This document shows positions 20,832 through 64,000 of a stretch of DNA of 64,000 nucleotides, piece by piece. The notes under the pieces are model-generated. The model was not told the origin of the DNA, made no database searches, and saw only the letters and a program-made list of their open reading frames with translations. Origin of the DNA: a virus (Duplodnaviria > Heunggongvirae > Uroviricota > Caudoviricetes); the IMG/VR virus record IMGVR_UViG_2622736468_000003, one strand, 5' to 3'. The position numbers and the translations under genes were made by a program. Position 1 is the first letter of the stretch, and the number at the start of each line of letters is the position of its first letter.

Positions 20832-20885
20832 TGAACCGCCCCGGGAATCCTGGAGACTAAACTTCCTGAGAAAGAGGTAAACAGG

Positions 20886-21212
20886 ATGACTAAAAATACT
20901 CGTTTTTCCCCCGAAGTCCGTCAACGGGCAGTCCGTATGGTTCTGGAAAGTCAGAGCGAATATGACTCACAATGGGCGACAATTTGTTCCATTGCTCCAA
21001 AGATTGGCTGTACGCCGGAGACTCTGCGTGTCTGGGTTCGCCAGCATGAGCGGGATACCGGGGGCGGTGATGGAGGGCTCACCACCGCTGAACGTCAGCG
21101 TCTGAAAGAGCTGGAGCGTGAAAATCGTGAACTGCGCCGCAGTAACGATATCCTTCGCCAGGCTTCCGCTTATTTTGCGAAGGCGGAGTTCGACCGCCTC
21201 TGGAAAAAATGA
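20886..21212 (+). CDS. IS629 OrfA
   Basis: 108-aa HTH/leucine-zipper ORF typical of IS3-family orfA. Confidence 0.8.
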
Positions 21213-22099
21213 TGCCACTGCTGGATAAGCTGCGTGAGCAGTACGGGGTCGGACCGCTATGCAGCGAACTGCATATTGCCCCGTCAACGTATTACCACTG
21301 TCAGCAACAGCGACATCATCCGGATAAACGCAGTGCCCGTGCGCAGCGCGATGACTGGCTGAAGAAAGAGATACAGCGCGTATACGATGAAAATCACAAG
21401 GTATACGGTGTGCGTAAAGTCTGGCGTCAGTTGTTACGGGAAGGTATCAGAGTGGCCAGATGCACTGTGGCACGTCTCATGGCGGTTATGGGACTTGCCG
21501 GTGTTCTCCGGGGTAAAAAGGTCCGTACGACCATCAGCCGGAAAGCCGTTGCCGCAGGCGACCGCGTAAACCGTCAGTTCGTGGCAGAACGACCTGACCA
21601 GCTGTGGGTGGCTGATTTTACTTACGTCAGCACATGGCAGGGCTTCGTCTATGTGGCGTTCATCATTGATGTGTTTGCCGGATACATCGTGGGGTGGCGG
21701 GTCTCATCGTCCATGGAAACGACATTCGTGCTGGATGCACTGGAGCAGGCGTTATGGGCCCGTCGACCGTCCGGCACGGTCCATCACAGTGATAAAGGTT
21801 CTCAGTATGTATCGCTGGCCTACACACAGCGGCTTAAGGAAGCCGGATTACTGGCATCAACAGGAAGTACAGGCGACTCGTATGACAACGCGATGGCGGA
21901 GAGCATCAATGGTCTTTACAAAGCGGAGGTAATACACCGTAAGAGCTGGAAAAACCGGACAGAAGTGGAGCTGGCCACACTCACGTGGGTGGACTGGTAT
22001 AACAATCGACGATTGCTGGAAAGGCTGGGCCATACTCCTCCGGCAGAAGCAGAAAAAGCTTATTATGCTTCCATCGGAAACGATGATCTGGCAGCCTGA
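21209..22099 (+). CDS. IS629 OrfB (DDE transposase)
   Basis: 296 aa; overlaps orfA as in IS3-family elements. Confidence 0.8.
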
Positions 22100-22141
22100 G
22101 TTCACAGATAAAACACTCTCCAGGAAACCCGGGGCGGTTCA

Positions 22142-26070: not shown

Positions 26071-26107
26071 GTAAGCGTGCAGCAAGAACCGTATTGACGG
26101 GGATGTG

Positions 26108-27646
26108 TTATTCAGTCGGCAGTGCTACGCGCCAGGGGAGCAGTTCGCCGACCCGGTTTATCGGCCAGTCGGCTATGACGTCAAGGACATAGCGGAGGTA
26201 GCTTTCTGGCTCCACTCCGTTCAGTTTGCACGTCCCGATCAGGCTGTACAGCAGCGCTCCCCGCTCTCCTCCATGATCCGAACCGAAGAACAGGTAGTTT
26301 TTGCGGCCCAGACTGACCATCCGCAACGCATTTTCAGCGATGTTATTGTCCGCCTCAGCCCAGCCATCATCTGCATAGTACGTCAGCGCCGGCCACTGGT
26401 TCAGGGCGTATGCGAACGCTTTCGCCAGTTCTGAGTGTCGCGACAGGGTTTTCATCTTTTCACGCAGCCAGCTTTCCAGGGATTTCAGCAGCGGTTTCGT
26501 TTTCAACTGACGTTCGGCAAGGCGCTGTTCCGCCGTCATTCCCCTTATCTCTGCCTCGATGGCGTACAGTTCGCCGATCCGTTTCAGCGCTTCCTCCGTC
26601 AGGGCTGACGGGGTGCGAACGTGCACATCGTGGATTTTACGGCGGGCGTGAGCCCAACAGGCGGCTTCCGTTATCCGGCCATCCCGGTACAGCTCGTTGA
26701 ACCCGGCGTATGCATCCGCCTGCAGTACACCACTGAACCCCGCAAGATGGGTCTGCGGATGGATGCCTTTTCTGTCCGGGCTGTAAGCGAACCACACCGC
26801 CGGCGCCAGCGTTGACCCGGCGTTACGGTCGTCACGAACATACGCCCACAACCGCCCGGTCTTCGTTTTCTTATTGCCTGGCAACAGCACCGGGACAGGC
26901 GTGTCATCAACATGGAGCTTACCGTCAGTCAGCACATAGCCATGAAGCGCCTCTTCCAGCGGAGACAGCAGCCGGCAGCATGCATCCACCCAGCCCGACA
27001 GCAGTGAACGGCTCAGCTCCACACCTTGCCGGCCGTATATTTCTGACTGGCGATACAGCGGGGTGTGCTCTGCATACTTCGAGGTCAGCACGCGGGCCAG
27101 CAGCCCCGGTCCGGCGATACCCCGCTCGATGGGCCGCGAAGGTGCAGGTGCCTGCACGATGGCATCGCACTGAGTACAGGCATGTTTTTCCCGTACCGTC
27201 CGGATAACCCGGAAGGCGCTACGCATCAACTCCAGCTGTTCGGCGGTATCCTCGCCCAGATAACTCAGTGAACCGCCGCAGTTCGGGCAGCACGGCGCCG
27301 CAGGCAACAGTCGCTTTTCGTCACGGGGTAGTGATTCAGGGAACGGCTTACGGGTGCGGGTCTGACGCAACGGACGCTGTACTGCCGGGTCATACACCCT
27401 ACCAGTCAGCGTATCGCTCTCTTTCTGAAGCCGGTTCAGATCGGCTTCCATTTGTGCGATACGGCGGGAGACTTTTTCGGAACGACTGCCGAAGTTCATC
27501 CGGCGGAGTTTATCCAGCTGCGCCTGCAGATGGTCTATTTCGCGCTCCCGGTTGCTCAGCTTTTCCTGCAGGGCGTGGATCAGCGCTTCCTGTTCGGCCA
27601 GGCGCTGTTTCAGCAGGAAGATGTCGTCAGAAGAGATGTCGTTCAT
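26108..27646 (-). CDS. IS66 transposase TnpC (intact, 512 aa)
   Basis: single ORF spanning both frames of the copy-1 fragments. Confidence 0.8.
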
Positions 27647-27695
27647 AAGCCCGTATTTTACCGGGCTTATTCTGTGACAACCAGGATAAAGAGAT

Positions 27696-28043
27696 TTACA
27701 GCATGGTCAGGGAGGTCAGCAGCCGCTTAGGCTGTCGCCAGTCGATACCTTCCAGCAGCATCGCCAGCTGCGCCTGTGTAAGGAACACTTTGCCATCACG
27801 GGCTGACGGCCAGGCGAAGCGCCCACGCTCCAGCCGTTTGGTCAGGAGGCACAGTCCGTCACCGGTGGACCACAGCAGTTTAACCTGACTGCCGCTGCGG
27901 CCCCGGAAAATGAAAACATGGCCGGACATGGGATCGTCTTTCAGCGCCGTCTGTACTTTCGCAGCCAGGCCGTTGAAGCCATTTCTCATATCGGTGATAC
28001 CGGCAACCAGCCAAATTTTGGTCCCGGAAGGTAACGGGATCAT
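27696..28043 (-). CDS. IS66 Orf2 (TnpB-like)
   Basis: identical to 3545..3892. Confidence 0.8.
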
Positions 28044-44138: not shown

Positions 44139-44876
44139 ATGAAAAGTATCACAAAATTTCTTGTGTGCGCAACTCTGGGCTTAGGTGGATTAACTGCACA
44201 GGCACATGCTGCATCTGGTGATAGTACCGTATCCCTTGGATTCGCTCACCTTCAGCTATCCGGGCTGAATAATTTTGTTAAGGATTTAAGTCTTCATAAC
44301 CTTGATACCTTTAACAATTTTGTGAATGAAAACTATTTCAATTCACCTGGAGAATATGACGATGCGTTTGTCCGGGGCCATGATGGTAAAGAGAAAAGTC
44401 CCTTGGGAATGAACATTAAGTATCGTTATGAGATTACGGATGAGATCGGTGTTATAACCTCTTTTGCATGGGCTCGATCCATGACTAATGCACAGGCATT
44501 CATTGATGTTAAGCCTTCCGATCCATCACGAGAGGTAAAAAAACCGGCAGCTTCAGCGAGAACTGATATCAGGGCTAATTACTGGAGTCTACTATCCGGT
44601 CCTTCGTGGCGGTTTAATGAATACCTCAGTGTGTATTCAATGGCAGGTGTTGCGGTTGCAAAAGTAACTTATGATTTGAAAGTTAACGACAATCTTAATG
44701 GTGGTGTAGGTAGTTTTTCTGAAAGTAACAGCACCAAAAAAACGTCTATTGCATGGTCTGTCGGCGCGCAATTTAACTTCAATGAAAGTGTTACTATGGA
44801 CGTCACTTATGAAAGCTCAGGCTCTGGCGACTGGAAAACTGATGGTTTATTTGCAGGCATTGGCCTGAAATTCTGA
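44139..44876 (+). CDS. Lom/Ail/PagC-family outer-membrane beta-barrel protein
   Basis: signal peptide MKSITKFLVCATLGLGGLTAQAHA; C-terminal ...GLFAGIGLKF; AT-rich upstream region; moron-like. Confidence 0.65.
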   Translation: MKSITKFLVCATLGLGGLTAQAHAASGDSTVSLGFAHLQLSGLNNFVKDLSLHNLDTFNNFVNENYFNSPGEYDDAFVRGHDGKEKSPLGMNIKYRYEITDEIGVITSFAWARSMTNAQAFIDVKPSDPSREVKKPAASARTDIRANYWSLLSGPSWRFNEYLSVYSMAGVAVAKVTYDLKVNDNLNGGVGSFSESNSTKKTSIAWSVGAQFNFNESVTMDVTYESSGSGDWKTDGLFAGIGLKF

Positions 44877-44926: not shown

Positions 44927-45108
44927 GCCCGTGCAGGGCAAAAATCGTAGATTATGCGCGGGTGCCTTTCGGCTGATGGCTGGAAGGTGAACCTGAAGGC
45001 CTGATGTGGAAAGGCCCCGAGTCAAACATTTTGTTTAACCCGAGGCCCTAACCATCATACCTTAAGCAAGTAGAAGGTTAGCGCCTCTCCACTCAGGAGG
45101 CAAGCGCT

Positions 45109-45249
45109 ATGTCGCAAAAATCGCTCATCACCGTCACAATTTGTATGACGGTAATCTTCACCATCTGGATGTTACACGGCTCGTTGTGTGAGTTCCGGCT
45201 GAATTTGTGGGGAGCGGAGTTTGCGGCGTTCTTACAGTGTAAGCAGTAG
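45109..45249 (+). CDS. Hok/Gef-family type I toxin (second copy, 46 aa)
   Basis: GGAGG RBS; MSQKSLITVTICMTVIFTIWMLHGSLCEFRLNLWGAEFAAFLQCKQ (TM segment followed by LCE motif as in HokA/HokE-type peptides). Confidence 0.55.
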   Translation: MSQKSLITVTICMTVIFTIWMLHGSLCEFRLNLWGAEFAAFLQCKQ

Positions 45250-45329
45250 GAAAACCGCGACGGGGACGAAAGTCCCCGTCAACTGGTTGCTGAGGTTCAG
45301 CCGATATGGCACCCGTTTCTGGTGAGAGA

Positions 45330-45798: not shown

Positions 45799-46455
45799 AT
45801 GGGCGGAAAAAAAGGCGGTGGTGATACCAAAGTAAAACCAACAGCAGCGCAAATAGCACAGGAAGAAGTGGCCTGGAAAGGGTGGCAGGATTATCAAAAA
45901 ATCCTCCGCCCGGCTGAAGATAACTTCATGGAAAAGGTCGATGACCTGAACAGTGAGCAGCAGTACGACAATATTGCTGGCACCACAAATCTGGGGTATC
46001 AGAAACAGTTTGGCGAAGCACGGAAGGAGCTGGCGGGTAATCTTGCTCAGTCCGGTGTTGACCCGTCCAGTGGTCGCTTTAACGCGGTAATGAATGCGAA
46101 CCAGAGTGATCAGGTAACCGGGCAGATTGACACAACCACACGGGGGCAGGTATCGCAGGCAGATAAGTATGTTGCCGGGCTACAGGATGTTGCTGCTCTC
46201 GGTTCTGGTCAAAAGGCGGATGCGTTACAGAGTTTTAACTCGCTGGCAGACAGCAGTCTGGCAAAAGCTAAATCGGACGCACAGGCTGCGTTTACGAAAC
46301 AGCAGGGGCGAGCCTCTCTTGTTGGCGCTGGTTTGGGTGCGGTAGGTGCATATGCGATGTATAAGGCTGGCGGTAGCGGAGGAAGTGGCGGTGCTAAAAC
46401 ACCAGGCACCGGCGCTAATGCCATTCAGCATCAGGCTCAGAACTGGAGACTGTGA
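45799..46455 (+). CDS. putative internal virion protein
   Basis: track ORF; Gly/Ala/Gln-rich; part of co-oriented block ending in the giant gene. Confidence 0.4.
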   Translation: MGGKKGGGDTKVKPTAAQIAQEEVAWKGWQDYQKILRPAEDNFMEKVDDLNSEQQYDNIAGTTNLGYQKQFGEARKELAGNLAQSGVDPSSGRFNAVMNANQSDQVTGQIDTTTRGQVSQADKYVAGLQDVAALGSGQKADALQSFNSLADSSLAKAKSDAQAAFTKQQGRASLVGAGLGAVGAYAMYKAGGSGGSGGAKTPGTGANAIQHQAQNWRL

Positions 46456-46904
46456 TTATGGAGTACGGTAAATACGAAACACTTGCGAGATACGGTTATA
46501 CCGGAGCTGCCCGTCCACAGGGTGACTGGCAGACGTCAGCAGCGCTGACACGCCAACAATACGACGACTGGCGAACCAGATATTTGCCCCGCGTGGCAAG
46601 GCTGGCTGACCTTGGCGAGAACAACAGCCTGATGAATGCACAGCTTGCCCGGGTGGGCGGCCTTGCCACTTCCAGTCTCCGTACAGCGCAGATGGCGCAG
46701 GATAACCAGATGGCGAGATACGGGGTAAGCCGCCCGGATAATCCCAACAGTAACACACTGGGTTTGCGTAATGCTCTGGCAATTGCTGGCGCGAAAAATG
46801 GTATCCGTGAAGCAGAGCAGGATCGCCAGATGAACATACTGACGGGGGCTTCTGCACCTGCAAGACAACAACTGAGTGTTGGCGGAAAACTGGTGTCAGC
46901 GTAA
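46452..46904 (+). CDS. putative internal virion protein
   Basis: track ORF overlapping preceding stop. Confidence 0.4.
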   Translation: MIMEYGKYETLARYGYTGAARPQGDWQTSAALTRQQYDDWRTRYLPRVARLADLGENNSLMNAQLARVGGLATSSLRTAQMAQDNQMARYGVSRPDNPNSNTLGLRNALAIAGAKNGIREAEQDRQMNILTGASAPARQQLSVGGKLVSA

Positions 46905-46913
46905 GGGGGCAAT

Positions 46914-47165
46914 ATGGGATACGGTTTACTGGATATTGCGAATCAGTCGCGGCGTGAGGCATTACAGGGAATAAGTGATGCCGACAGACGACGTGAAGAA
47001 ATTGAGGCCGCGAACAAACAGATGGCGGCGCAACAGAAAGCGCAGAACAAACAGAATATCGGCACGGGAATTGGTACGGGTGCAGCTATGGGCGCTGCTG
47101 TTGGTGGTCTCCCCGGTGCGGCTATTGGTGCTGTCATAGGTGGTATTGCTGGTTCTTTGTTTTAA
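46914..47165 (+). CDS. small protein with C-terminal glycine-zipper membrane segment
   Basis: GTGIGTGAAMGAAVGGLPGAAIGAVIGGIAGSLF. Confidence 0.45.
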   Translation: MGYGLLDIANQSRREALQGISDADRRREEIEAANKQMAAQQKAQNKQNIGTGIGTGAAMGAAVGGLPGAAIGAVIGGIAGSLF

Positions 47166-47175
47166 GGAGTGGTGA

Positions 47176-48441
47176 ATGAGCGGATTTGCACAGGGTTTAC
47201 TTGCCGGATTCAGCACGGTTGACCAGGCAATGACCCGTCGTAAGGAACTTGGTTTGCGAGAAGCACAGCTTGCTCAACAACAGAAAAATAACGAGCGCGA
47301 TTTTGAATTTGCACAGTCGCAGTTTGAACATAATAAAGACGTTGATCAGCGGAACTTTGATTACAGAGCCAAAGTCGACGACCGTAATTATGCACTGCAG
47401 GAAAGGGAGTTTAACGCCAACCAGAATTACCGGAATGCGTCGCTGGGTATGGAGCAGCAGCGACTCCGGATGCAGAAATACAACCAGCGACGGCTTGAGT
47501 ATAACGATATGCTGGCGCGCGATCAGCCTGTGATGGCGGCGCTTGGAAAGGCTGTGGATGCTGGCGATCGGGATGCAGCAATGCGTCTTTACGGCCAGTT
47601 GTCAGAGGGTAATCCGCTGAGGCTGATGGCGAATGATGGCTATGTAGCGAAAGCGGGTCAGGCCGTGAACAACCTGCAAAAAATCTTTGATGACAAGCCA
47701 GACAGGGCTATCGCTTCACTTAATACGCCGGAGAATCTTGATGTCCTTTCCGGGGTGTTTGGCCCGGAACTGCAACAGCGTATTGGCATGCCCGATTCAA
47801 CCGGGAAAAAGACGATAAAAGAGGCCAGGATTGGCAGTATAGTACCGGCACAGCAGGAAGGGTACATACTTATCGGCCTTGATCTCACATACAGTGATGG
47901 CTCTACAGCACATAAACCCGTTACGGAATACGGCAGTGCACATCCTGATGATCAAACCGTGCTGGCGGTGCCTGTTGATAAGGCTGTTGAGCTTGTCAGG
48001 GATCGCAGTAAATTCGCGGAAATTTCGAAAAATTTCGGCTATTTCACGCCGAAGCAGCAGGGACTTTCTGCGGATCAACTTCAGAAAGGAGCCAGCCAGG
48101 TAGCGATAAAGGTTGCACAGGACGGCGGTGATGCGCAGGGAGCAGTGACGCAATATTATGCTTCGATGGGACTGCCGCAGTATCAGCAGCAAATTCAGCA
48201 GCAAAAAATTCAACAAGGGATTACCAGTTGGGCGGGTGATGATCCGGATAAGCAGGCATTTGCCAGAGAAGTGGCCTCCCGTCAGCCAGAAATGCTGGAG
48301 CCTCAGAATCAGAAATTGCTGGAACACGGGTATGCGAATTTTCTCCGTATTCAAAAGGCCAGGGGGGAACAGGCCAGGGATGATAGCGCGGCCTCTGCAT
48401 CTGAGTTTATCCGTGGTCTGAAACAGAATTACGCGCAGTAA
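47176..48441 (+). CDS. putative internal virion protein
   Basis: 421 aa, Gln-rich. Confidence 0.4.
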   Translation: MSGFAQGLLAGFSTVDQAMTRRKELGLREAQLAQQQKNNERDFEFAQSQFEHNKDVDQRNFDYRAKVDDRNYALQEREFNANQNYRNASLGMEQQRLRMQKYNQRRLEYNDMLARDQPVMAALGKAVDAGDRDAAMRLYGQLSEGNPLRLMANDGYVAKAGQAVNNLQKIFDDKPDRAIASLNTPENLDVLSGVFGPELQQRIGMPDSTGKKTIKEARIGSIVPAQQEGYILIGLDLTYSDGSTAHKPVTEYGSAHPDDQTVLAVPVDKAVELVRDRSKFAEISKNFGYFTPKQQGLSADQLQKGASQVAIKVAQDGGDAQGAVTQYYASMGLPQYQQQIQQQKIQQGITSWAGDDPDKQAFAREVASRQPEMLEPQNQKLLEHGYANFLRIQKARGEQARDDSAASASEFIRGLKQNYAQ

Positions 48442-48509
48442 TTCACCATTCCCGTTAATACTATTTCCTGATACCCGGTCATTGTGCCGGGTTTTTTTAT
48501 GGAGTCTGT

Positions 48510-51500
48510 ATGGCTTATTCCGATGAACAGCGCCCTGAAGCGCAATTTGGCAACCAGAGCCGCAACAGCCTGAACATTCAGCAGCCGGGAGAGACTGACA
48601 GCTATGATGTGTTTTTCTCCGATCCCAATCGCTGGAAGGACAACAGCACGTCGTTCAGCCTGGGCGATGTATTGCCAACTATGGGGAAAGGTGTCGCCCA
48701 GTCCGTCCGGGGGACAGGGGAAATGGCCCGTGGACTCGGTGATGCGATGATTCAGAGCCCGGTAAAAACAGGGGCACGTATTTTAAATGAGTTCAGCCGT
48801 ATGGGGCTGCCGGGAGTCGCAACTGTTCAGGATATTTTTGTCGGTGGCAGCAAGGGGGCGGATGAGGTCATCGACACTCTGCCTGATGGAAAAAATGCGG
48901 TTACTGATACTGTCGGTAAAGGTCTGAAGGTCACAGGCAAGGCAGTCAGTGGCGGCGCTAAAGCCTCGGATGAATGGCTGACTGGCAAGATGTCGCCGGG
49001 GGCGCAGCGGGCGCTGAATACACCGATGACTGAAGGATATGATGATTCAGCGGTCTGGGTAGCGAAAGGGGTTAACCTGATTGGTGCGCTTGTACCGGAT
49101 ATGGTTGCAGGCGGTGTGACTAAAAAGCTGGGTGATGTCACTCTGCGAAAAGTGCTGACCGCCGGGCTGGAGAAAAAATACATCGCGGCAGGGATGCAGC
49201 CGGAAAGAGCCACAGCACTGGCAGCCGAAGCTGTCGATAAAAAAATGCCGGATTTTTTCCAGGCAGGCCTGATCACCCATTCCACTGTCAGTGCGCAAGG
49301 GCGGAGTGCAATGGCAGCGGCAGATGCTGTTCTTAACGCGGATTATTCTGAGCTGGCGAAGTCACCGAAATTTCAGCAGACCTTTTTGTCAATTGATGCA
49401 GATCCGCAGCACGCGCAGCTTACTGACCGCCAGAAAATGGACCTGGCAAAAGAGCGTGTTGCCGATGAGGTGCGTGCGCAACTGGCAACCGATCCTGAAT
49501 TGCTGGCTGTGAATGCCATGGCGGCAAAACTGGGCGATGCTCAGTTGCTTAATCTGGCGATGCGGGGCACGGCGAAGACCGTTAAAAGCGGCATTGTCAG
49601 AAATGCCACGGAACAGGGGACGATTAATGCGGCGCAGGGTGGCTATTTACGCTATCAGGAAAACACGGCATTGCGTGAGACCGCCGGAATGGATGTGTCA
49701 CCGTGGGAGGGCGTGGCTGACGCAACGATCGAAGGTGCAGCCCTTGGTGCTGCAATGGGGGCACCATTCGGTGCGGCTGCCGGATATCGTGGAAAACGTC
49801 AGGCGGCAGATGAAGCAGCCATGCGTGAGGCTGAAAGCGTTCCTCAGGACGAATCGGCTCCGCAACCCGAACCGGTTGATCCGGTGGCACAGCATCGTGA
49901 ATCTATGCAGGGGATGAATCGCGAGCAGCTTCTGGAACAGTATGCTGATGCGGATATGGCACATGAGGGAGACACGTCTGCCGTTCATCGCCGGGAAGCC
50001 GCCAGCCAGCTGTTGAATGAACTGGATGAACAGGCGAAGCGACAGGCGGTGATGGATGAGCTGAAGGCGAAGCCGCGCCCTGAACTGCTTGAGGAATACC
50101 GAAAACTCAGCCAGAAGGAAGGGCGTACTGATACTGAAGAGCAGCAGTTACAGGCAATACGTGATGTGCTTCGCCCTCAGCGGGAGGCCAGACCGGAGGC
50201 ACAGCCACAGCCGGAAAATGCGGATGATGGCGACGGGAGTATTTACCCGACGGTGCGGTTCCGCGATCCGGATGAAGTTCGTATTGAAATTAACGAGAGT
50301 GGTGCGTCCAGACCAGCAGAACGCATTGAAAAGGTGCGTCCGGACAACCGTTATTTCACGGATGAAAAAAGTGCTCTGGGGAGCGACGTTTTCCGCAATG
50401 CCAGCGCCACCGGCCTGAAACCGTCCGTAGTGAAGAAAGGCGAGAATCAGTATGCCGTTGAAATGGATAATCCTGCGTTCTCTGAAGATGTGGCAACGGA
50501 GACCATTAACACTCTGGCTGACGGAGAGCGTATTACTGATGCTGATCCGATGGAACAGCCCGCGTTCATGCGTGACCCGCGATTCCGTGGTTTTACGGGG
50601 GATGATACAGAAGTGCAGGCCCGTCTTGCCCGTGGCAACGCGCCGACGGCGGAAGAACTGGTGCGTTCCCAGATGGCTGAAGGTGATGCCGGTCCGACAG
50701 CACAGGAGTTAACTGAGCGTCCACGCCTTCCCGCTCCCGGCGATATTCATCCCGGACAGGGATATCCGTTACCAGGAGAAGTAGCGCGTACGCCGGATGA
50801 AAATCAGGCCGGACGTGGTGGTCGTTTTACCACAACCGGTGAGGTGAAGGGCCAGAGTTTCCAGAAAGGACGTGCGCAGGCACCGGAAAATGCCGCTGGT
50901 CGCCAGGGGGAAATACTGGAGGGCGAAACAGTTCGTCGTGGTCTGCCGTCACCGGATGAGCAGAACGCCACAGCACCAGTGCGTGAAGGACTTCCTGCAC
51001 CTGAAAGTCAGCGTGGGGTTGATATGCCACAGCCTGAATCACTCCCTCGTATGGTTCGTGACTCCCTTCCGGAACTGGCACAGCAGGCAGAAGCACGCAG
51101 ACAGACCGGGGATAATCGCCAGACCATAACCGATGTTCCGGATACTGAGGTGCCGGTGCCGGTAGATAAACCGAGCACTCACCAGCAGGCGCGTGGTGCG
51201 AAAATTGAAGACTTTGGCGAGGAGATTAAGGGCGCGGCAAAACACCGTTATGCGCAGCTTGCTGAAGCTATGGGTAAAACGCTGGAGGATGGGGAGTACG
51301 CGACACAACCACTGAGCAAACTGTTTCCAAAGCCGGATTATGCCCGTCTGGAAAAAGAAGGTGTGGATAGTGACACGCTGGCAATGATGGCGTTGTATCG
51401 CAGTGAAATTCCCACCAGAACAAGCCGTAACATGCAGAAATGGATCAGCATTGTTAAAAGCGGTCGCGAAGCTACTGCCGGTATGCTGGAGGGGAAAATT

Positions 51501-54500
51501 CCGGCAGCGAAACTGGCTGATATGATGGACAGTAAGCCGGGGTTACGGAGCATGTCGGATACCTGGAAACTGCTCCGTACGCTTTCTGCATTGCAGATTG
51601 ATAAAGCATCCGGCTATCGTGTCAGGTCCGGTGTTTATTCGTTTGTCGGGGGAAAACGTTACGATCCGCCGCAAATGATGTATTCGCTTCGTGATAGCAA
51701 GGGGCGCGACCTCTTTTTCTCGGAAAGCCGGGATGAGTTACTGAAAAAGGCGAAAGCATATTTCGATGAACAAGGCTCCAGAGAAAGGGAAACGCCAGCA
51801 ACCTCTGCTGATGACAGAATAACCTTTGACGTGTACCGGCATAAGGCCAGTGGCGACATTTTTATCGGTTATGGCAAAAACAGGCAGAAACTGAAGGGCG
51901 GTTTTGAGTCTGCCCGTGATGCACATGATTATGTGCGCACACATCGTGATGAGCTGGTTAATCAGGTGAAGGCGCTGCGTGAAGTCTCGCGTGAGGAGCA
52001 GCGTAACGCCACCAACCGCGATCGTACCGGACCAGAACGCCGCAAGGGGGATGTTTCGCCGGAGCAGTTCAGTGATGCGTTTGGTTTTCGTGGTGTGCAG
52101 TTTGGTAATTATGTGGAAAGTCCGCGTCGTCAGGCTGATTTGAACCGGGCTTATGACTCGCTGCATGACCTGGCTGACGTGCTGAACGTGCCGACAAAAG
52201 CGCTTTCTCTGAACGGTCGTCTTGGGCTTGCTTTTGGTGCCCGTGGTAAGGGTAAGGCGGCGGCACACTATGAGCCGGGTGAGGTGGCAATCAACCTGAC
52301 AAAAGGTAACGGACCGGGGGCGCTGGCCCACGAATGGTTCCATTCACTGGATAATTATTTTGGTCGTTATGATGTTTCCACTGACGGGAAGATCACGTCA
52401 GGTGGCGACTATATGACGGAAGCACAGCGTGCCGGGCGCGTATTTAAAGACGGCAGGTATGTTGATGCGGAATATCCGGTACGTCAGGAGGTTTACGACG
52501 CGTTTAAAGGCGTGATGAAAGCCATTAACAGCAGTGACATGTTGCGTCGTTCTGAACGCCTGGATGGCGTTCGTTCAAAACCGTACTGGTCAACGGATGT
52601 TGAAATGGCGGCGCGAGCCTTTGAGCGTTATGTTCAGGATAAAGCGCGTATGGCTGGCGTGGAGAATGATTATCTGGTCAATATCCGTAAGGCGGATGAC
52701 CATGGACAGCCGGACACCTACGCTTATCCGACGAATGCAGAACTGGATGGCGGTATTCGTGAGGCATTCGATCACTTGTTCCGAACACTGAAAACCCGTG
52801 AGACGGACAAGGGAGTTGCGTTTTATTCCCGTAAGGGCGTGACCCGCACACCTGAAGGCAATCTGATTTCGGATGTTAACCGCAGTGCGGAAGCCAAAGG
52901 CAGTCCGGTCCCGCAGGTTGAAGCTGTTGCCCGTGGCGTGATTAGTGGCATTAAGGACAGTGACCTGAAGGTCCGCGTGGTGAAGTCACAGAAAGAGGCT
53001 GAAGCACTGGCGGGTGAATCATTCGACGGTTACGGCAAGGTGCACGCGTTCTATCGTCCGGATAAACGTGAAATTGTCCTGGTGGCGGATAACATCCCTG
53101 ACGGGCGGACCGTTCGCGAGAAGTTACGTCACGAGATTATTCACCATGCAATGGAGCATGTAGTCACGCCAGCGGAATATCAGACGATTATTAAGACCGT
53201 GCTGAAAACCCGTGACAGTGATAACGCCACCATCCGTGAAGCCTGGCGTAAGGTTGATGCGTCTTATGGTAAGGAATCACCGGAAGTGCAGGCGGGTGAA
53301 TTTCTGGCGCATATGGCAGAGAAGCAGCCGATTAAATTCGTGGCGGCATGGGAGCGTGTTGTTGCCCTGGTCAAAGGGGTACTGCGTCGTACGGGGTTAC
53401 TGAAGCCGACGGAACTGAACGATATCAGACTTGTTCGCGAAACTATTCGCACGTTAGGCCAGCGTGTGCGGGAAGGTTACACGCCGCGTGAGGATGGCGC
53501 GGACGCATCGTCTCAGTACTCCCGTAGCGGTAAGCCTGATCCGTTCAAAGTGCCGGAAGGTGAGGGCGAGCGTTATCGTGATGACCTTGCCAGAATGATG
53601 AAGTCTCTGCGCTCAACGGATTTAACGGTAAACATCGGGCGTACGCCGCCGGTATTGCGTCACCTTGGCGCACCAGATTTGCCGCTGGTTATCTCCCGCG
53701 ACACTGTGCGTAAGGCCACCAATGGTGTGAAACATGTGGTGCCGATGGATGTTATCGAGAGACTACCGGAACTGATGCACGATCCGGATGCAATTTACCG
53801 TTCCGCGACAGAAAGAAACGCGGTTGTGATGCTGCTTGATGCCGTGGATAAAAATGGTGATCCGGTGGTGTCAGCGGTACACATGAAGGCTGTCCGGTCG
53901 CGCCTGGAAATCAACAAGGTGGCATCTGTTTACGGTACGGAAAACGGGAAAAAACTGAAGAGTATGGAAATGACCGGTTTAACGTTGTACCGGAGAGAAA
54001 AATTAAGCCGCGATAACCTTCTGCACAGAGGGCTCCAATTGCCCAAAGGGGAACATTCTTATCGCGGCTCTGTTGATAAAATACTCTATCCTGAAGATAT
54101 TCGCAAGGGGCCGTATTACTCCCGCACCAGCAGTCTGACGCCGGAGGAGACAATTGCATCCCGTTTTGTTCGCCAGATGCAGGATAAATTCCAGGTGCTG
54201 AAGGCGGTGCAGGAGAATATCCGTAAAACTGGCGGAAAAATAGATGACAGCAATAACGCCTATATGGCTGAAGAACTCTTCCACGGGAAGGCGGAAAACG
54301 ACCTGAACGTAATGAAGGAGCGCTACGTTCAGCCGCTGGCCAAATTGCTGGCGGACTACAAAATTGCGCAGGCCGATCTGGATGAGTACCTCTACGCCCG
54401 TCACGCGCCGGAACGTAACGCGCATATTGCGAAAATCAACCCGAAAATGCCGGACGGCGGTTCGGGGATGACCAACGCGGAAGCGGCGGAAATCATGCAG

Positions 54501-56861
54501 CGTGTGCGTAACAGCGGCAAACAGGCACAGTATGACCGTCTGGCAGGGATTATTGACGATATGCTGGCCCGTCGCCGTGAGATTATCCGTGAGGCAGGAC
54601 TGGAAGAGAGCGGCGTGGTGGATGCCTGGCAGAAAGCCTACCGTTACTACGTCCCCCTGAAAGGGCAGGATGTTGACGGTGTGGTGTCACAGCCACGTAC
54701 AGGCAAGGGATTCACCATCGGCGGGCGTGAAAGTAAGCAGGCCATGGGGCGTGCATCCCGCGCACAGTCTCCTTCCACTCAGGCGATACAGGATTTGAGT
54801 GAATCGCTGATCCGCAATCGCAAAAATGAAGTGGGTAACGCCTTCCTGAAACTGGTACAGGATAATCCCGACAAGGATTACTGGCAGGTATTCACTGATG
54901 ACAGACCGGATACAATGCGTGTGATTGCAGAGCGCAAGGACCAGGAAACTGGTGAAACCATTCGCGAAGTTGTCGAGCGCCCTGTGCCGATGGCAATGAT
55001 GGCGGATCGCTACTTCACCACCAAAAAGGACGGCAAAACTTACTACATTAAACTTCATGATCCGCGCCTGATGCGTGCGATGAAGAACATGGGGCCGGAA
55101 ACCAGTAACGCCGTAATCCGTACGCTGGGGAAAGTTAACCGCTTCCTGGCAACGGTGAACACGTCGTATAACCCGGAATTTCTGGTCAGTAACTTCATCC
55201 GTGACGTGCAGACTGCGGTGATGAACCTGAAGGCTGAGCAGGGAAGAAGCGACGGCAAACTGAAAGGGCTGGATAACTTATCCGCGCTGGCTGTGGTGAA
55301 AGACAGCCGTTCCGCCATGTCAGCCGTATACGCAAGTCTGCGGGGTAAAACCCTCACGGGCAAAGGCGCACAGTGGCAGAAAGTGTGGAAAGAGTTTGTT
55401 GAGGACGGAGGTAAAACCGGCTGGTTTAACATGGGGGACCTTGAAGGCCAGCAGAAGGAAATGGATCGCCTTGTGTCGCTGGCGAAGGGCGGATGGAAAG
55501 GCCAGAGTATCGGTGCATGGCATTCGTTCCTGAACCTGGTCGAGGATGCCAACGGCGCGGTTGAAAACGCTCTGCGTCTTTCTGCCTATAAACACGCCCG
55601 TGATGCCGGTTTGTCACGCCAGCAGGCGGCATCTCTTGCCAAAAACATGACGGTGAACTTTAACCGTCGTGGTGAGCAGGGAGCGCTGATGAACTCGCTG
55701 TATATGTTTGCCAACGCCAGCATTCAGGGGACCGCAAACCTGGTGAGAACGCTCGGACATCTTAATGGCGACGGGCCGTTACTGGAGCGCCTTCGCTGGA
55801 AGAATCTCAATGTACCGCAGAAAATCGCGCTTGCAGCTGTGGGAGCGGGTTATCTGCTTGGCTCGCTTAACCGCAGTGTGGCGGGTGAGGATGATGACGG
55901 GGTTAACTGGTACGACAAGGTGCCGTATCATGTGAAAGAGCGTAACCTCGTCATTATGAAATCGATGTTCGGGGGCAGGGCCGGAGAGTACTGGAGTATT
56001 CCTCTGCCTTACGGGTACAACGTTTTCTTCCTGCTCGGGCATACCTCTGAAGGTGTGGCTGCTGGTGACCTGACGGCGTCCCGTGCTGCCGGTAATGTTG
56101 TCGGTGGTATCCTGGGGGCATTCAGCCCGATTGGCAGTGAGACGTCGGAAACGCTGTCCGGGGCATTGCTGAAAAATGCAGCACCGACAATTCTGCGTCC
56201 GTTTGCGAATCTTGCCATGAACGAAAACTTCATGGGGGCGCAGATTTACCAGGAGAACATGCCGTTTGGTACACCAAAACCTGACAGCCAGCTGGGAAGA
56301 CGTTCAACGCCAGAAGCGTACAAGGCGTTTGCATTCTGGCTGAATGCGTTCTCAGGTGGCAGCCAGTATCGTCCCGGCGCGGTGGATATCACACCGGAAT
56401 CGCTGAAATTCTGGATTGACTATATCTCCGGAGGGACAGGGCGCTTCATTTCCAAAACCACGGATGCGGCGGTGAAATCGCTGAATGGTATTGATATACC
56501 GGAACAGCAGGTGCCCTTCCTGGGGAAAATTTCGGGTGAGGTGATGCCGTATGCAGACCAGCAGAAGATGTACGACCGGATGACAGAGGTTGCGCAGTAT
56601 CACGCAGAGCTGAAGAGTCTGACCGGTGCAGAAAGAACGGCGTTCATTGACGAGAACAACGGAAAATTGTTGATGAACGGGCTTATGCAGGATACCCGGA
56701 AGAGACTGAAGGATTTGCGCAAACAGCGCGATGCCATTTATGCCGACAGTTCTCTCAGTCTGGCGCAGCAGGCGGCGATGGTGAAATCGGTAGAGCGGGA
56801 TATGAAGGTTGCCGTGGATCGCTTTAACCGCGAGTACAACAAAAAAGTGGGAGTGGATTAA
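48510..56861 (+). CDS. giant (2783-aa) putative virion/ejection protein with two HExxH metallopeptidase-like motifs
   Basis: single uninterrupted ORF of 8.35 kb; motifs ALAHEWFHSLD and LRHEIIHHAMEH; last gene of the late block. Confidence 0.6.
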   Translation: MAYSDEQRPEAQFGNQSRNSLNIQQPGETDSYDVFFSDPNRWKDNSTSFSLGDVLPTMGKGVAQSVRGTGEMARGLGDAMIQSPVKTGARILNEFSRMGLPGVATVQDIFVGGSKGADEVIDTLPDGKNAVTDTVGKGLKVTGKAVSGGAKASDEWLTGKMSPGAQRALNTPMTEGYDDSAVWVAKGVNLIGALVPDMVAGGVTKKLGDVTLRKVLTAGLEKKYIAAGMQPERATALAAEAVDKKMPDFFQAGLITHSTVSAQGRSAMAAADAVLNADYSELAKSPKFQQTFLSIDADPQHAQLTDRQKMDLAKERVADEVRAQLATDPELLAVNAMAAKLGDAQLLNLAMRGTAKTVKSGIVRNATEQGTINAAQGGYLRYQENTALRETAGMDVSPWEGVADATIEGAALGAAMGAPFGAAAGYRGKRQAADEAAMREAESVPQDESAPQPEPVDPVAQHRESMQGMNREQLLEQYADADMAHEGDTSAVHRREAASQLLNELDEQAKRQAVMDELKAKPRPELLEEYRKLSQKEGRTDTEEQQLQAIRDVLRPQREARPEAQPQPENADDGDGSIYPTVRFRDPDEVRIEINESGASRPAERIEKVRPDNRYFTDEKSALGSDVFRNASATGLKPSVVKKGENQYAVEMDNPAFSEDVATETINTLADGERITDADPMEQPAFMRDPRFRGFTGDDTEVQARLARGNAPTAEELVRSQMAEGDAGPTAQELTERPRLPAPGDIHPGQGYPLPGEVARTPDENQAGRGGRFTTTGEVKGQSFQKGRAQAPENAAGRQGEILEGETVRRGLPSPDEQNATAPVREGLPAPESQRGVDMPQPESLPRMVRDSLPELAQQAEARRQTGDNRQTITDVPDTEVPVPVDKPSTHQQARGAKIEDFGEEIKGAAKHRYAQLAEAMGKTLEDGEYATQPLSKLFPKPDYARLEKEGVDSDTLAMMALYRSEIPTRTSRNMQKWISIVKSGREATAGMLEGKIPAAKLADMMDSKPGLRSMSDTWKLLRTLSALQIDKASGYRVRSGVYSFVGGKRYDPPQMMYSLRDSKGRDLFFSESRDELLKKAKAYFDEQGSRERETPATSADDRITFDVYRHKASGDIFIGYGKNRQKLKGGFESARDAHDYVRTHRDELVNQVKALREVSREEQRNATNRDRTGPERRKGDVSPEQFSDAFGFRGVQFGNYVESPRRQADLNRAYDSLHDLADVLNVPTKALSLNGRLGLAFGARGKGKAAAHYEPGEVAINLTKGNGPGALAHEWFHSLDNYFGRYDVSTDGKITSGGDYMTEAQRAGRVFKDGRYVDAEYPVRQEVYDAFKGVMKAINSSDMLRRSERLDGVRSKPYWSTDVEMAARAFERYVQDKARMAGVENDYLVNIRKADDHGQPDTYAYPTNAELDGGIREAFDHLFRTLKTRETDKGVAFYSRKGVTRTPEGNLISDVNRSAEAKGSPVPQVEAVARGVISGIKDSDLKVRVVKSQKEAEALAGESFDGYGKVHAFYRPDKREIVLVADNIPDGRTVREKLRHEIIHHAMEHVVTPAEYQTIIKTVLKTRDSDNATIREAWRKVDASYGKESPEVQAGEFLAHMAEKQPIKFVAAWERVVALVKGVLRRTGLLKPTELNDIRLVRETIRTLGQRVREGYTPREDGADASSQYSRSGKPDPFKVPEGEGERYRDDLARMMKSLRSTDLTVNIGRTPPVLRHLGAPDLPLVISRDTVRKATNGVKHVVPMDVIERLPELMHDPDAIYRSATERNAVVMLLDAVDKNGDPVVSAVHMKAVRSRLEINKVASVYGTENGKKLKSMEMTGLTLYRREKLSRDNLLHRGLQLPKGEHSYRGSVDKILYPEDIRKGPYYSRTSSLTPEETIASRFVRQMQDKFQVLKAVQENIRKTGGKIDDSNNAYMAEELFHGKAENDLNVMKERYVQPLAKLLADYKIAQADLDEYLYARHAPERNAHIAKINPKMPDGGSGMTNAEAAEIMQRVRNSGKQAQYDRLAGIIDDMLARRREIIREAGLEESGVVDAWQKAYRYYVPLKGQDVDGVVSQPRTGKGFTIGGRESKQAMGRASRAQSPSTQAIQDLSESLIRNRKNEVGNAFLKLVQDNPDKDYWQVFTDDRPDTMRVIAERKDQETGETIREVVERPVPMAMMADRYFTTKKDGKTYYIKLHDPRLMRAMKNMGPETSNAVIRTLGKVNRFLATVNTSYNPEFLVSNFIRDVQTAVMNLKAEQGRSDGKLKGLDNLSALAVVKDSRSAMSAVYASLRGKTLTGKGAQWQKVWKEFVEDGGKTGWFNMGDLEGQQKEMDRLVSLAKGGWKGQSIGAWHSFLNLVEDANGAVENALRLSAYKHARDAGLSRQQAASLAKNMTVNFNRRGEQGALMNSLYMFANASIQGTANLVRTLGHLNGDGPLLERLRWKNLNVPQKIALAAVGAGYLLGSLNRSVAGEDDDGVNWYDKVPYHVKERNLVIMKSMFGGRAGEYWSIPLPYGYNVFFLLGHTSEGVAAGDLTASRAAGNVVGGILGAFSPIGSETSETLSGALLKNAAPTILRPFANLAMNENFMGAQIYQENMPFGTPKPDSQLGRRSTPEAYKAFAFWLNAFSGGSQYRPGAVDITPESLKFWIDYISGGTGRFISKTTDAAVKSLNGIDIPEQQVPFLGKISGEVMPYADQQKMYDRMTEVAQYHAELKSLTGAERTAFIDENNGKLLMNGLMQDTRKRLKDLRKQRDAIYADSSLSLAQQAAMVKSVERDMKVAVDRFNREYNKKVGVD

Positions 56862-61603: not shown

Positions 61604-64000
61604 TTAAACCTTTTCGATCTGGACAAGATTGCTGTGCGACGGGTTTCCCTTTGCCAGCGGTGAAGGGCGGTGCGAGGTCAGAATATTGATACTGCCGCCG
61701 TGATCGACCCGGTCACCAAACATATCCGCTTTAAGCCAAGCACCTTGCCCGATGGCGGTAACGCCAGGCAGAATACGCGGAGTCACTTTTGCGGCAATCA
61801 GCATTTCTCCATTATTGTTAAATACCCGCACGGTATCGCCATGACGGATACCGCGTGCCTGAGCATCAATGGGGTTGATCCACACCTCTTGTGGGCAGGC
61901 CTGCTGTAACACATCAATATTGCCGTAGCTGGAGTGGGTACGCGCTTTGTAGTGGAAGCCCGTTAACTGCAGTGGATAGGTTTTCCGCAGGGGATCGTCC
62001 CAGCCATCAAAACCTGGGGTATACGCAGGAAGGGGATGAATAATTTCATCTTTTTTCAATTCCCAGGTATCTGCAATCTTCGCCAGTCGTTCAGAATAAA
62101 TTTCGATTTTCCCCGAAGGTGTTTTCAACGGGTTTGCCTGTGGATCTTCACGGAATGCGCGGAAAGCGACGTAGTGTTCTTCCGGGCATTTTTTCTTAAA
62201 GATCCCGGTCGTTTTCATCTCCTCGTAGTCGGGCATCTCAGGGTTACGTTCCTTCGTTTTCGCATGGAGATATTTGATCCATTCATGCTGACTGCGACCT
62301 TCAGTAAAGGTTTGATAAACGTCCGGTCCTAAGCGTTTGGCGACTTCACTCAGCATCCAGTAGATGGGTTTGCGTTCAAATTTTGCTGAGGTTGCGGGTT
62401 GGGCGAGGATCACATAGCCCATATTCCCGGCAGATTCATGAGAGATAAGGTCTTCTTGCTCTGTTGGCATCAGGTCGGGCAACAGGATATCGCAATACTT
62501 AGCCGAGGCCGTCATGAAGTGGTCAATGCCAACAATCATCTCGCACTTGCTGTCATCCTGAAGCACCTCATGGGTGTGATTGATGTCGCCATGTTGATTG
62601 ATCAATGTGTTACTGGCGTAGCACCATAAAAACTTGATGGGGACATCCAGTTTTTCTTTTCCACGAACACCATCACGGGTCGCGGTCATTTTCGTACCAT
62701 GGTCGATGGCATCTGTCCATGTAAAAACGGAAATCTGCGTTTTAACAGGATTCTCGAGCATCGGGAACCATTCTACCCCCAGATCCCAGCTACCTTCGCG
62801 TACACCTGAGTTGCCGCCGTTTATGCCGACGTTACCGGTAAGAACGGAAAGCATGGCAATAGCGCGGGACGTTTGTTCGCCGTTGGAGTGTCGTTGTGGC
62901 CCCCAACCCTGACAAATATAAGCAGGTTTTGCTGAACCGATCTCTCGTGCCAACTGGATAATTTTTTCTGCCGGGATGCTGGTGATTTTTGCTGCCCATT
63001 CCGGCGTTTTAGCTATGCCGTCAGGCCCTTCGCCCAGAATATAGGCTTTATAATGCGCGTTACGTGGTGCGTTGGCGGGCAGCGTTTTTTCATCGTAACC
63101 AACACAATATTTGTCGAGAAATGGCTGATCGACCATGTTTTCAGTAATCAGTACCCAGGCAATCGCACAGGCCAGTGCGCCATCGGTGCCAGGGCGAATG
63201 GGCAGCCATTCATCTTCACGCCCGGCAGCTGTGTCGTTATAACGTGGATCGATGACGATCATGCGTGCGTTTGAACGTTCGCGGGCTTGCTCGACGTAGT
63301 AAGTGACACCACCGCCGCTCATCCGTGTTTCTGCCGGGTTATTTCCGAACATAACGACCAGTTTCGTATTGGCGATATCATCCGGGCTGTTGCCATCATT
63401 GGCACCGAACATATAACTCATTGCGGCACTGATCTGTGCGGTACTGTAGCTGCCATAGCGACTGAGAAAACCACCACATGAGTTCATCAGACGGTACGGG
63501 ACGTTTGAGTTGGTGATGTTTCCGCCATCTACGCCTGTTCCGTACAGGACATGTACAGCCTCATTGCCGTAATCTTTAAGGATCCGCCGAAGATTATCAC
63601 TGATGGTATCCAGGGCTTCGTCCCAACTTATCCGTTCAAATTTACCTTCACCGCGCTTGCCGACGCGCTTCATGGGATATTTCAACCTATCAGGATGATT
63701 CATCCGTCGGCGGATAGAGCGCCCGCGTAAACACGCTCGAACCTGATGATTACCGTAGACGTCGTCACCTGTCGTATCAGATTCCACCCAGTACACGGTG
63801 TCATCTTTCACATGCAAACGTAACAGACAGCGGCTCCCGCAGTTAACGGTGCAGGAACTCCAGACCGCTTTCTCTTCTACCGGAGCCTGTGCCGCCCGGA
63901 CCATTTGGGAAAATGGCAGAGTGAAAGCACTGCTTGCCAGCGCAAGACTGCCAAGTGCGGAGGTTTTCATCAGACTTCTACGGCTGATTTCAGCCTTCAT
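61604..64000 (-). CDS. ynfF: YnfF, DMSO-reductase-family molybdopterin catalytic subunit (5' end beyond the window)
   Basis: 798-aa ORF with twin-arginine signal SRRSLMKTSALGSLALA and CTVNCGSRC cluster; ynfG start follows 10 nt downstream. Confidence 0.8.
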   Translation of the reverse strand: MKAEISRRSLMKTSALGSLALASSAFTLPFSQMVRAAQAPVEEKAVWSSCTVNCGSRCLLRLHVKDDTVYWVESDTTGDDVYGNHQVRACLRGRSIRRRMNHPDRLKYPMKRVGKRGEGKFERISWDEALDTISDNLRRILKDYGNEAVHVLYGTGVDGGNITNSNVPYRLMNSCGGFLSRYGSYSTAQISAAMSYMFGANDGNSPDDIANTKLVVMFGNNPAETRMSGGGVTYYVEQARERSNARMIVIDPRYNDTAAGREDEWLPIRPGTDGALACAIAWVLITENMVDQPFLDKYCVGYDEKTLPANAPRNAHYKAYILGEGPDGIAKTPEWAAKITSIPAEKIIQLAREIGSAKPAYICQGWGPQRHSNGEQTSRAIAMLSVLTGNVGINGGNSGVREGSWDLGVEWFPMLENPVKTQISVFTWTDAIDHGTKMTATRDGVRGKEKLDVPIKFLWCYASNTLINQHGDINHTHEVLQDDSKCEMIVGIDHFMTASAKYCDILLPDLMPTEQEDLISHESAGNMGYVILAQPATSAKFERKPIYWMLSEVAKRLGPDVYQTFTEGRSQHEWIKYLHAKTKERNPEMPDYEEMKTTGIFKKKCPEEHYVAFRAFREDPQANPLKTPSGKIEIYSERLAKIADTWELKKDEIIHPLPAYTPGFDGWDDPLRKTYPLQLTGFHYKARTHSSYGNIDVLQQACPQEVWINPIDAQARGIRHGDTVRVFNNNGEMLIAAKVTPRILPGVTAIGQGAWLKADMFGDRVDHGGSINILTSHRPSPLAKGNPSHSNLVQIEKV

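Follow-up and report, generated by a model that had tools for sequence, protein, structure and literature searches.

A giant cysteine-free protein of a 933W/Sp5-type prophage, a candidate ejection protein with an N-terminal module related to that of the phage N4 virion RNA polymerase

Introduction

What does a short-tailed lambdoid prophage do with a single protein of 2783 residues, and from which parts is this protein built? The question is raised by a stretch of 64,000 nucleotides (IMG/VR virus record IMGVR_UViG_2622736468_000003; the whole stretch is called the window below), in which positions 48510..56861 of the plus strand form one intact open reading frame (ORF) with an ATG start and zero internal stops. 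A sequence-only reading of the window had pointed to this uninterrupted 8.35-kb frame at the close of the virion block, which the ORF itself confirms, and had proposed that its product, with two HExxH motifs of zincin type, may be an injected polyvalent or an ejection protein. We find this interpretation supported. It is essentially that of the polyvalent-protein survey of Iyer et al. 2017 (PMC5512222) and of a 2026 preprint on phage phi24B (10.64898/2026.04.10.717836), and to this extent the finding is already known. What is added here is a corrected domain map, a profile-based homology to the N-terminal domain (NTD) of the virion RNA polymerase (vRNAP) of phage N4, a family-wide cysteine-free signature, and an architecture of constant ends and variable cargo. 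We consider it likely that the giant belongs to the internal virion ("ejection") proteins of short-tailed prophages of the 933W/Sp5/phi24B type, and that it is built like the N4 vRNAP and equipped with different cargo.

Identity and domain composition of the giant protein

The rightward late block ends with the giant gene. On the same strand, the genes for terminase, portal, N4-gp56-type capsid, fibre and tail are found 5' of it, and early-type genes of the opposite strand come next. Its DNA is 99.9% identical to a prophage gene of E. coli O104:H4 annotated as "LPD38 domain-containing protein", and 90-96% identical to 186 phage records, nearly all of them Shiga toxin (Stx)-converting or related Escherichia/Shigella phages. 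The proteins of Sp5, 933W and phi24B listed below are orthologous, with the same position and length; compared with those of 933W and phi24B, identity is 87-97% in most segments and both HExxH motifs are conserved. The protein matches PHROG 616, a 2793-position family without assigned function, from end to end, and a whole-protein sequence search of the PDB gave no match below E 0.6.

Four curated Pfam families were found above cut-off, namely LPD5, LPD1, MuF_C and LPD38, all of which were defined in the survey of polyvalent proteins (PMC5512222). The giant combines the two features expected of this class, i.e., at least two unrelated effector-type domains (LPD5, two metallopeptidases (MPTases), MuF_C/PBECR and LPD38) and a virion late-gene context, and the first half of the earlier proposal, a polyvalent protein, is borne out by these families. 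A conventional tape-measure or fibre protein with fortuitous HExxH matches, the alternative that domain searches were meant to expose, did not emerge, as no such family was found in Pfam, PHROGs or NCBIfam and the fibres are encoded elsewhere.

The giant gene and its parts are as follows.

48510..56861, plus strand: giant ORF, 2783 aa, cysteine-free, orthologue of Sp5 ORF80/ECs1242, 933W ST933Wp72 and phi24B gp47 (GenBank vb_24B_48)
48630..49787, plus strand: N-terminal module (N module), aa 41-426, homologous by profile to the NTD of N4-like vRNAPs, with a Gly/Ala-rich uncharged end (aa 409-426)
49050..49106, plus strand: single hydrophobic peak of the giant protein in a Kyte-Doolittle scan, aa 181-199, AVWVAKGVNLIGALVPDMV
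49788..51179, plus strand: P/E/Q/R/D-rich segment of low hydrophobicity, aa 427-890, delimited by composition and covered by few homologues
51180..52079, plus strand: conserved pre-LPD5 region and LPD5 domain, aa 891-1190 (Pfam LPD5 at aa 1047-1190, E 4.5e-43)
52080..52799, plus strand: zincin-like metallopeptidase 1 (MP1), aa 1191-1430, with Pfam LPD1 (1351-1430) as its C-terminal helix region
52329..52343, plus strand: first HExxH, HEWFH, aa 1274-1278, within ALAHEWFHSLD
52887..53429, plus strand: zincin-like metallopeptidase 2 (MP2), about aa 1460-1640, delimited by conserved residues and an AlphaFold (AF2) model
53130..53144, plus strand: second HExxH, HEIIH, aa 1541-1545, within LRHEIIHHAMEH
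53727..53996, plus strand: MuF_C/PBECR domain, aa 1740-1829 (Pfam PF18819, E 1.4e-17)
54126..56858, plus strand: C-terminal module (C module), aa 1873-2783, about 105 kDa, mostly alpha-helical with one beta insert
55905-56522, plus strand: LPD38, aa 2466-2671 (Pfam E 3e-46)

Two zincin-like metallopeptidase domains and a predicted RNase

Both HExxH motifs are active-site motifs of zincin type and not chance matches. That they fit the zincin pattern had been noted from the sequence; that they are real is evident from their conservation (in 144 and 36 homologues, respectively), from the downstream Glu and from the AF2 fold. Two occurrences stand against 0.04 expected from the protein's own composition, but conservation is more telling than this count. 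With aa 1040-1840 as query, a full HMMER search of 1.84 billion representatives yielded 6953 clusters when the limit was set to E <= 1e-3, and 2702 when it was set to E <= 1e-30; the majority are proteins 2000-5700 aa long. Each of the MP1 residues H1253, H1274, E1275, H1278, D1281, E1365, R1369 and E1372 reaches a conservation of 90% or more across 144 of the best representatives, and an independent alignment of 42 sequences reproduces the same set. For MP2, conservation of at least 90% is found at H1541, E1542, H1545 and E1597 (36 sequences).

MP1 corresponds exactly to the pattern given by Iyer et al. (PMC5512222) for a widespread phage-type MPTase clade, in which an additional His ends strand 2 and an Asp follows three residues after HExxH. 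The NCBIfam model CLCA_X matches aa 1172-1427 (E 5e-45), and this match, together with the conserved residues of MP1, implies that Pfam LPD1 (aa 1351-1430, E 7e-23) is the C-terminal, Glu-bearing helix region of MP1. No Pfam or NCBIfam model covers MP2, and this second MPTase is not described as a named family by Iyer et al. 2017. Both zincin domains are contained in a confident AF2 model (pLDDT 81), in which MP2 consists of a helix, three strands, the HExxH helix and the Glu helix. The layout typical of zincins, with an N-terminal helix and beta-sheet, the HExxH helix and a later helix with the Glu ligand, is displayed by MP1 and MP2 alike. The best structural matches of the aa 1172-1700 model in the PDB are the zincins MtfA, Pro-Pro endopeptidases (PPEP-2/3) and anthrax lethal factor, with which the model shares HExxH and the downstream Glu ligand. 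Zincin-like MPTases are the main hub domain of polyvalent proteins and have been proposed to act in polyprotein processing or in a post-delivery attack on host proteins (PMC5512222).

MuF_C, by contrast, is predicted to be an RNase and not a metallopeptidase. According to Iyer et al. (PMC5512222) it equals PBECR, a predicted metal-independent endoRNase of the BECR fold; the diagnostic His and Ser/Thr of PBECR correspond to H1742 and S1806 of the giant and are conserved in 41 homologues, and at the sequence level the domain has the marks of the PBECR/MuF_C RNases. LPD5 was called "potentially enzymatic" by the same authors (PMC5512222). It is part of the segment that differs most from 933W and phi24B: aa 891-1190 are 65.6% identical between flanks of 87-97%, a pattern that points to an exchanged (recombinant) allele or to a fast-evolving module.

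An AAA+ ATPase was hinted at for Sp5 ORF80 (COG1483) by Mondal et al., who inferred a role in tail formation (PMC5155283). The Walker A motif [AG]xxxxGK[ST] is absent from all 2783 residues and no ATPase family was found in Pfam or NCBIfam, and the AAA+ suggestion is therefore unsupported.

The N-terminal module and the virion RNA polymerase of N4

By hhalign, a profile of 18 giant N-terminal homologues was compared with one that represents N4 gp50 and eight other Schitoviridae vRNAPs by their N-terminal regions. The two match with a probability of 98.3% and E 1.3e-14 over 324 columns (giant 41-421, gp50 105-440); against full-length vRNAP alignments the values are 98.0% and 1.5e-13 (giant aa 41-424, gp50 105-443), with up to 331 columns. 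In controls with the N4 NTD profile, reversed or column-shuffled templates gave E 0.25-0.8 and the other modules of the giant E 0.065-0.8. A hidden Markov model (HMM) of the Schitoviridae NTD likewise matches other LPD5/MPTase giants, with E up to 3.6e-20, and proteins with a giant-type N module at about 1e-5 to 1e-6; this type of module also occurs in phages of Vibrio and Aeromonas.

As judged from these profiles, aa 41-424 are homologous to the lipid-binding NTD of the N4 vRNAP, and the giant possesses the N-terminal (injection/membrane) domain of N4-like vRNAPs. The relationship is new here. Iyer et al. (PMC5512222) found no wider relatives for the N-terminal region of the N4 vRNAP, and the phi24B preprint (10.64898/2026.04.10.717836) does not mention the N4 vRNAP. 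BLASTP against N4 gp50, not significant alone, supplied a hint that was then confirmed by comparing profiles. No usable signal came from single HMMs of the giant's modules against N4 gp50, gp51 and gp52, and a first word-indexed homologue search with the N-terminus retrieved close fragments only.

The NTD of N4 gp50 is flexible and lipid-binding, has putative membrane-spanning helices at 224-278, inserts into nanodiscs, and is joined to the remaining protein via a 100-residue low-complexity linker. It has been proposed to tether the vRNAP to the inner membrane and gp51, and in the N4 model the other "beads" traverse a channel of roughly 30-35 A and then refold (PMC13434306, PMC13492108). In the hhalign alignment, gp50 224-243, the start of the putative membrane helices, falls on aa 181-200 of the giant, i.e., on its hydrophobic peak. 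The adjoining aa 427-890 (about 460 residues) are probably a disordered tether, which would be analogous to the 100-aa linker between NTD and RNA polymerase (RNAP) in N4 gp50.

Further along the protein, MP2 displays a short and weak hhalign match to the HExxH domain of N4 gp50 CTD-C1 (2203-2233; E 7.4e-5, Prob 62%). No match to full vRNAP alignments was obtained by hhalign with MP1, C1 and C2, and the C2 part of the N4-like vRNAP C-terminal domain (CTD) was not recognised in the giant by this comparison. The vRNAP core families PF21894, PF21769, PF21867 and PF21624 of Pfam, all four of which are present in N4 gp50, are absent from the giant protein.

Constant ends and variable cargo

The region aa 1840-2783 recurs as a unit in Vibrio phages (40% identity) and in GP4-like Ralstonia phages (27%; often labelled "DarB-like"), and is likewise found in Burkholderia CSP3, in the Bacillus phages Pascal and Pookie and in a Pelagibacter phage. 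The PHROG "DarB-like" family 10089 matches the LPD38 region only. In other proteins the C module follows different cargo, such as methyltransferases, PF18760, PF18798, PF18823 or GGDEF. Among the representatives, each of the two modules keeps to its own end of the protein, without exception the N module at the very N-terminus and the C module at the very C-terminus; by this sequence comparison the two are terminal constants that flank swappable cargo.

No solved structural relative of the 105-kDa C module was found. Across homologues of 33-57% identity it contains many invariant polar residues (HAPERN, PDGGSGM and the LPD38 core), and invariant stretches include YLYA.HAPERNAHIA, PDGGSGMTN, NFNRKGE and IPLPYGYN. 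No known fold or family accounts for these residues, which would be more usual in an enzyme or at a precise interface than in a passive packaging tag. LPD38 was considered as a transmembrane region and rejected: uncharged stretches are present, their hydrophobicity is below threshold, and the helices are buried in the model.

Upstream genes and absence of cysteine

Four small ORFs precede the giant gene; the sequence-only reading had described three Gln/Gly-rich proteins here and has to be corrected in this point.

45799..46455, plus strand: ORF of 218 aa, cysteine-free, phi24B gp51 orthologue, with a Gly-zipper-like hydrophobic stretch at its end
46452..46904, plus strand: ORF of 150 aa, cysteine-free, phi24B gp50 orthologue
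46914..47165, plus strand: ORF of 83 aa, cysteine-free, phi24B gp49 orthologue, with Pfam Gly-zipper_YMGG (E 4.5e-6) at its end
47176..48441, plus strand: ORF of 421 aa, cysteine-free, phi24B gp48 orthologue
48473..48499, plus strand: GC-rich terminator-like hairpin (48473-48492) and T run of seven, between the 421-aa gene and the ribosome-binding site of the giant gene

The four ORFs (45799..48441) are candidate partner ejection proteins. Of their phi24B orthologues, mass spectrometry (MS) of purified virions identified gp48, gp50 and gp51, and the signal of gp49 was low (10.64898/2026.04.10.717836). The orthologue of the 83-aa protein carries the annotation "bacteriocin", and the phi24B proteome study set it aside as a contaminant. 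Given the place of the 83-aa protein among cysteine-free virion proteins, we suggest that it is a membrane-inserting ejection component.

Cysteine is absent from all 2783 residues of the giant and from the four upstream ORFs. The same holds for N4 gp50, gp51 and gp52 and for the homologous proteins of eight other Schitoviridae, except for a single Cys in one vRNAP, and for 120 of the 150 best representative giants; the DEV study notes this trait for gp71 and gp50. The absence of cysteine fits proteins that cross the envelope unfolded.

The sole cysteines of the giant proteins annotated for 933W and phi24B are contained in 13 extra N-terminal residues (MPGHCAGFFYGVC). The start codons annotated for these two orthologues fall within the hairpin 48473-48499, which encodes the extension, and the 13 residues are probably not translated. 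Counted from MAYS, i.e., after subtraction of the extension, the orthologue has a length of 2793 aa, which matches the report for Sp5 ORF80; the present protein has 2783 aa, and its ATG is preceded by GGAG 7 nt 5'.

Evidence from orthologues and a possible mechanism

Experimental data exist for two orthologues. Sp5 mutants that lack ORF80 or, separately, ORF79 (which adjoins ORF80 and is taken to be the 421-aa ORF) form no plaques and do not lysogenise; their DNase-protected DNA and head morphology are normal, and the defects can be complemented (PMC5155283). In phi24B, the virion MS signal of gp47 is the second highest and is exceeded only by that of the major capsid protein. The copy number was estimated at about 11-35 per virion, the protein is absent from the cryo-EM model, and a diffuse lumen density is lost on ejection, an observation that refers to the density and not to gp47 itself (10.64898/2026.04.10.717836). 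In gel-slice MS most gp47 was found in the top slice, with substantial signal above the 80-kDa portal (10.64898/2026.04.10.717836). This pattern is compatible with processing and, as the sample had been stored for six months, equally with degradation. The data from both phages fit a packaged ejection protein, and together with the homology to the N4 NTD they agree with the second half of the earlier proposal.

The course of events might be the following. Several copies of the giant, whose presence in virions was shown by the phi24B MS, would be packaged with the DNA in the capsid and/or the tail lumen. After receptor binding the small cysteine-free proteins encoded upstream would exit first and form a conduit that spans the envelope. 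The giant would be next, unfolded as "beads on a string", a passage that the absence of cysteine would help. Its N4-NTD-like N module with the single hydrophobic helix may anchor it at the inner membrane or the conduit, and the disordered tether of about 460 residues would permit the downstream beads to refold in the cytoplasm. There, the two zincin-type peptidases may cut the polyprotein and/or host proteins, and PBECR may cleave RNA. The C-terminal 105-kDa module would serve in virion incorporation or docking; this role is suggested by its constant terminal position behind variable cargo and by the C-terminal regions of N4 gp50, which is required for encapsidation (PMC5512222), and of DEV gp71, which binds the tunnel protein (DEV study).

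We lean towards the view that the giant of Stx phages and the N4 vRNAP are two versions of one ancient ejection "chassis", of which the RNAP would be one exchangeable cargo among many. Such a chassis would, on a similarly slight balance of probability, consist of a membrane-anchoring N module and a long tether that delivers refoldable cargo beads through the tail, the cargo being here two proteases and an RNase.

Comparison with known systems

The polyvalent proteins of Iyer et al. are likewise giant and multi-domain, are encoded beside virion genes, and combine LPD domains with MPTase hubs and a PBECR RNase; LPD38 occurs in their phage-type members only (PMC5512222). With N4 gp50 and DEV gp71, the vRNAPs and ejection proteins of Schitoviridae, the giant shares the homologous N module with its hydrophobic helix, a low-complexity linker thereafter, and the lack of cysteine. 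An HExxH domain is located ahead of an alpha-helical C-terminal domain of about 105-110 kDa without structural relatives, and the gene is the last and largest after a run of genes for small cysteine-free virion proteins. A T=9 capsid of the N4-gp56 type is a further likeness. The C module parallels CTD-C2 of N4, an orphan fold (PMC13434306), in position, size and helical nature, although the sequences are not detectably related.

Differences from N4 are likewise evident. Unlike N4 gp50, the giant has no RNA polymerase domain, and the estimated copy number is higher in its phi24B orthologue (about 11-35 versus 4). The phage, in contrast to N4, is temperate and lambdoid and uses the host RNAP with Q antitermination. 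The ejection proteins of small podoviruses (T7 gp14/15/16, P22 gp7/20/16) and P1 DarB resemble the giant: they enter the virion together with the DNA, infectivity depends on them whereas packaging of the DNA does not, and the largest is encoded last. No sequence relationship of the giant to the T7 and P22 ejection proteins or to P1 DarB was found, and it has neither a methylase nor a helicase.

Alternative explanations

Several observations weigh against an N4-like ejection protein. The Kyte-Doolittle scan reveals no strong transmembrane helix in the giant (maximum score 1.38). The C module compared by hhalign with the N4 CTD gives E > 0.2 for both halves, and the upstream ORFs have no similarity to the N4 gp51 and gp52 profiles, so that the tie to N4 consists of the N module and, weakly, of one HExxH domain. 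A literature search on LPD5/LPD1 biochemistry found none, and neither a peptidase or RNase activity nor a substrate is reported for LPD5/LPD1/MuF_C proteins. Both the entry of the giant into the cell and any action of its domains against host defences are inferred. The prophage of the window is probably unable to package DNA (see below), and the giant may never be used here. Finally, Sp5 heads formed without ORF80 were not labelled by an anti-tail-fibre antibody (data not shown in that paper; PMC5155283). The authors took this as a defect in tail assembly, an effect not anticipated for a protein that is solely an injected effector.

These unlabelled heads, which do contain DNA, and the position of the giant gene at the end of the tail gene block would suit a protein that is chiefly a tail-assembly or tail-stabilising factor, possibly an energy-using one as proposed for Sp5, and not a carrier of injected effectors. 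We regard this as unlikely. Neither a Walker A motif nor an ATPase family of Pfam or NCBIfam is present, the architecture is that of polyvalent and ejection proteins, and roughly 11-35 copies occur in mature virions, yet do not form part of the resolved tail. The two roles are compatible, as an internal protein that fills the lumen could aid stable tail attachment.

In the phi24B preprint, gp47 is proposed to be an ejection protein and to break down peptidoglycan with a "MuF-C metallopeptidase" (10.64898/2026.04.10.717836), which would make way for a trans-periplasmic conduit. The orthologue is indeed virion-associated but unresolved in the maps, N4-type ejection proteins have no known peptidoglycan hydrolase, hence some such activity is needed, and some polyvalent proteins do carry peptidoglycan-acting peptidases (Iyer et al., PMC5512222). 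However, the preprint credits the peptidase to a domain that is a predicted BECR-fold RNase. The real HExxH domains, with Glu as third ligand, resemble the protein-cleaving MtfA, PPEP and lethal factor and are unlike known cell-wall peptidase families. Related giants that need wall degradation have separate lysozyme or transglycosylase domains. Digestion of peptidoglycan by the giant is, in our view, quite unlikely.

State of the prophage

The window contains a 933W/Sp5-type short-tailed lambdoid prophage. In blocks, it shares 98-99.7% identity with the prophage that E. coli O104:H4 2011C-3493 carries at ynfG. Compared with its orthologues in Stx phages, the present copy of the giant gene resides in an stx-negative prophage at ynfG that is disrupted by insertion sequences (IS); a motif search found no Stx A or B motif in any frame of the window.

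61604..64000, minus strand: ynfF, flank of the prophage integrated at ynfG
26070-28513: IS66-family element, with the transposase ORF at 26108..27646, minus strand (DDE_Tnp_IS66, E 1.8e-106)
27696..28043 and 28040..28441: IS66 accessory ORFs
20831-22142: IS3-family element, with ORFs at 20886..21212 (108 aa) and 21209..22099 (296 aa), HTH_Tnp_1 plus rve

Compared with the O104:H4 prophage copy, most of the small-terminase gene (about 730 bp) has given way to the IS66 element, and for this reason the prophage of the window is probably packaging-defective. The IS3 insertion lies in a DUF1737-SASA esterase gene (19268..20860), of which 530 aa are left instead of 637; the phi24B orthologue of the truncated esterase is gp84, a capsid-decorating NanS-p-type esterase. 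Morons for a Lom/Ail outer-membrane protein (44139..44876) and a Hok/Gef-type toxin (near 45100-45250, placed by comparison) separate the tail genes from the cluster of candidate ejection proteins, an order also seen in 933W.

The losses in the small-terminase gene and in the NanS-p-like capsid-decoration esterase gene would be in accordance with a giant gene that a prophage in decay carries along unused, with its frame intact but without present function in this window. We consider this very unlikely. The stop-free frame of 8.35 kb is 99.9% identical to the O104:H4 copy, hence any decay must be very recent, and the family is plainly selected elsewhere; moreover, this explanation is about the state of one copy and not about the identity of the protein.

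Conclusions

Short-tailed Stx phages spread Shiga toxin genes, and the giant is their largest and second most abundant virion protein. Its domain map is now fixed and comprises two genuine zincin domains as well as a predicted RNase, and neither an AAA+ ATPase nor a "MuF-C metallopeptidase". The NTD of the N4 vRNAP is experimentally tractable, and the link to it makes the vague label "ejection protein" specifically testable. The constant ends suggest that thousands of related metagenomic giants are cargo variants on shared terminal delivery modules. [quoted passage not shown]

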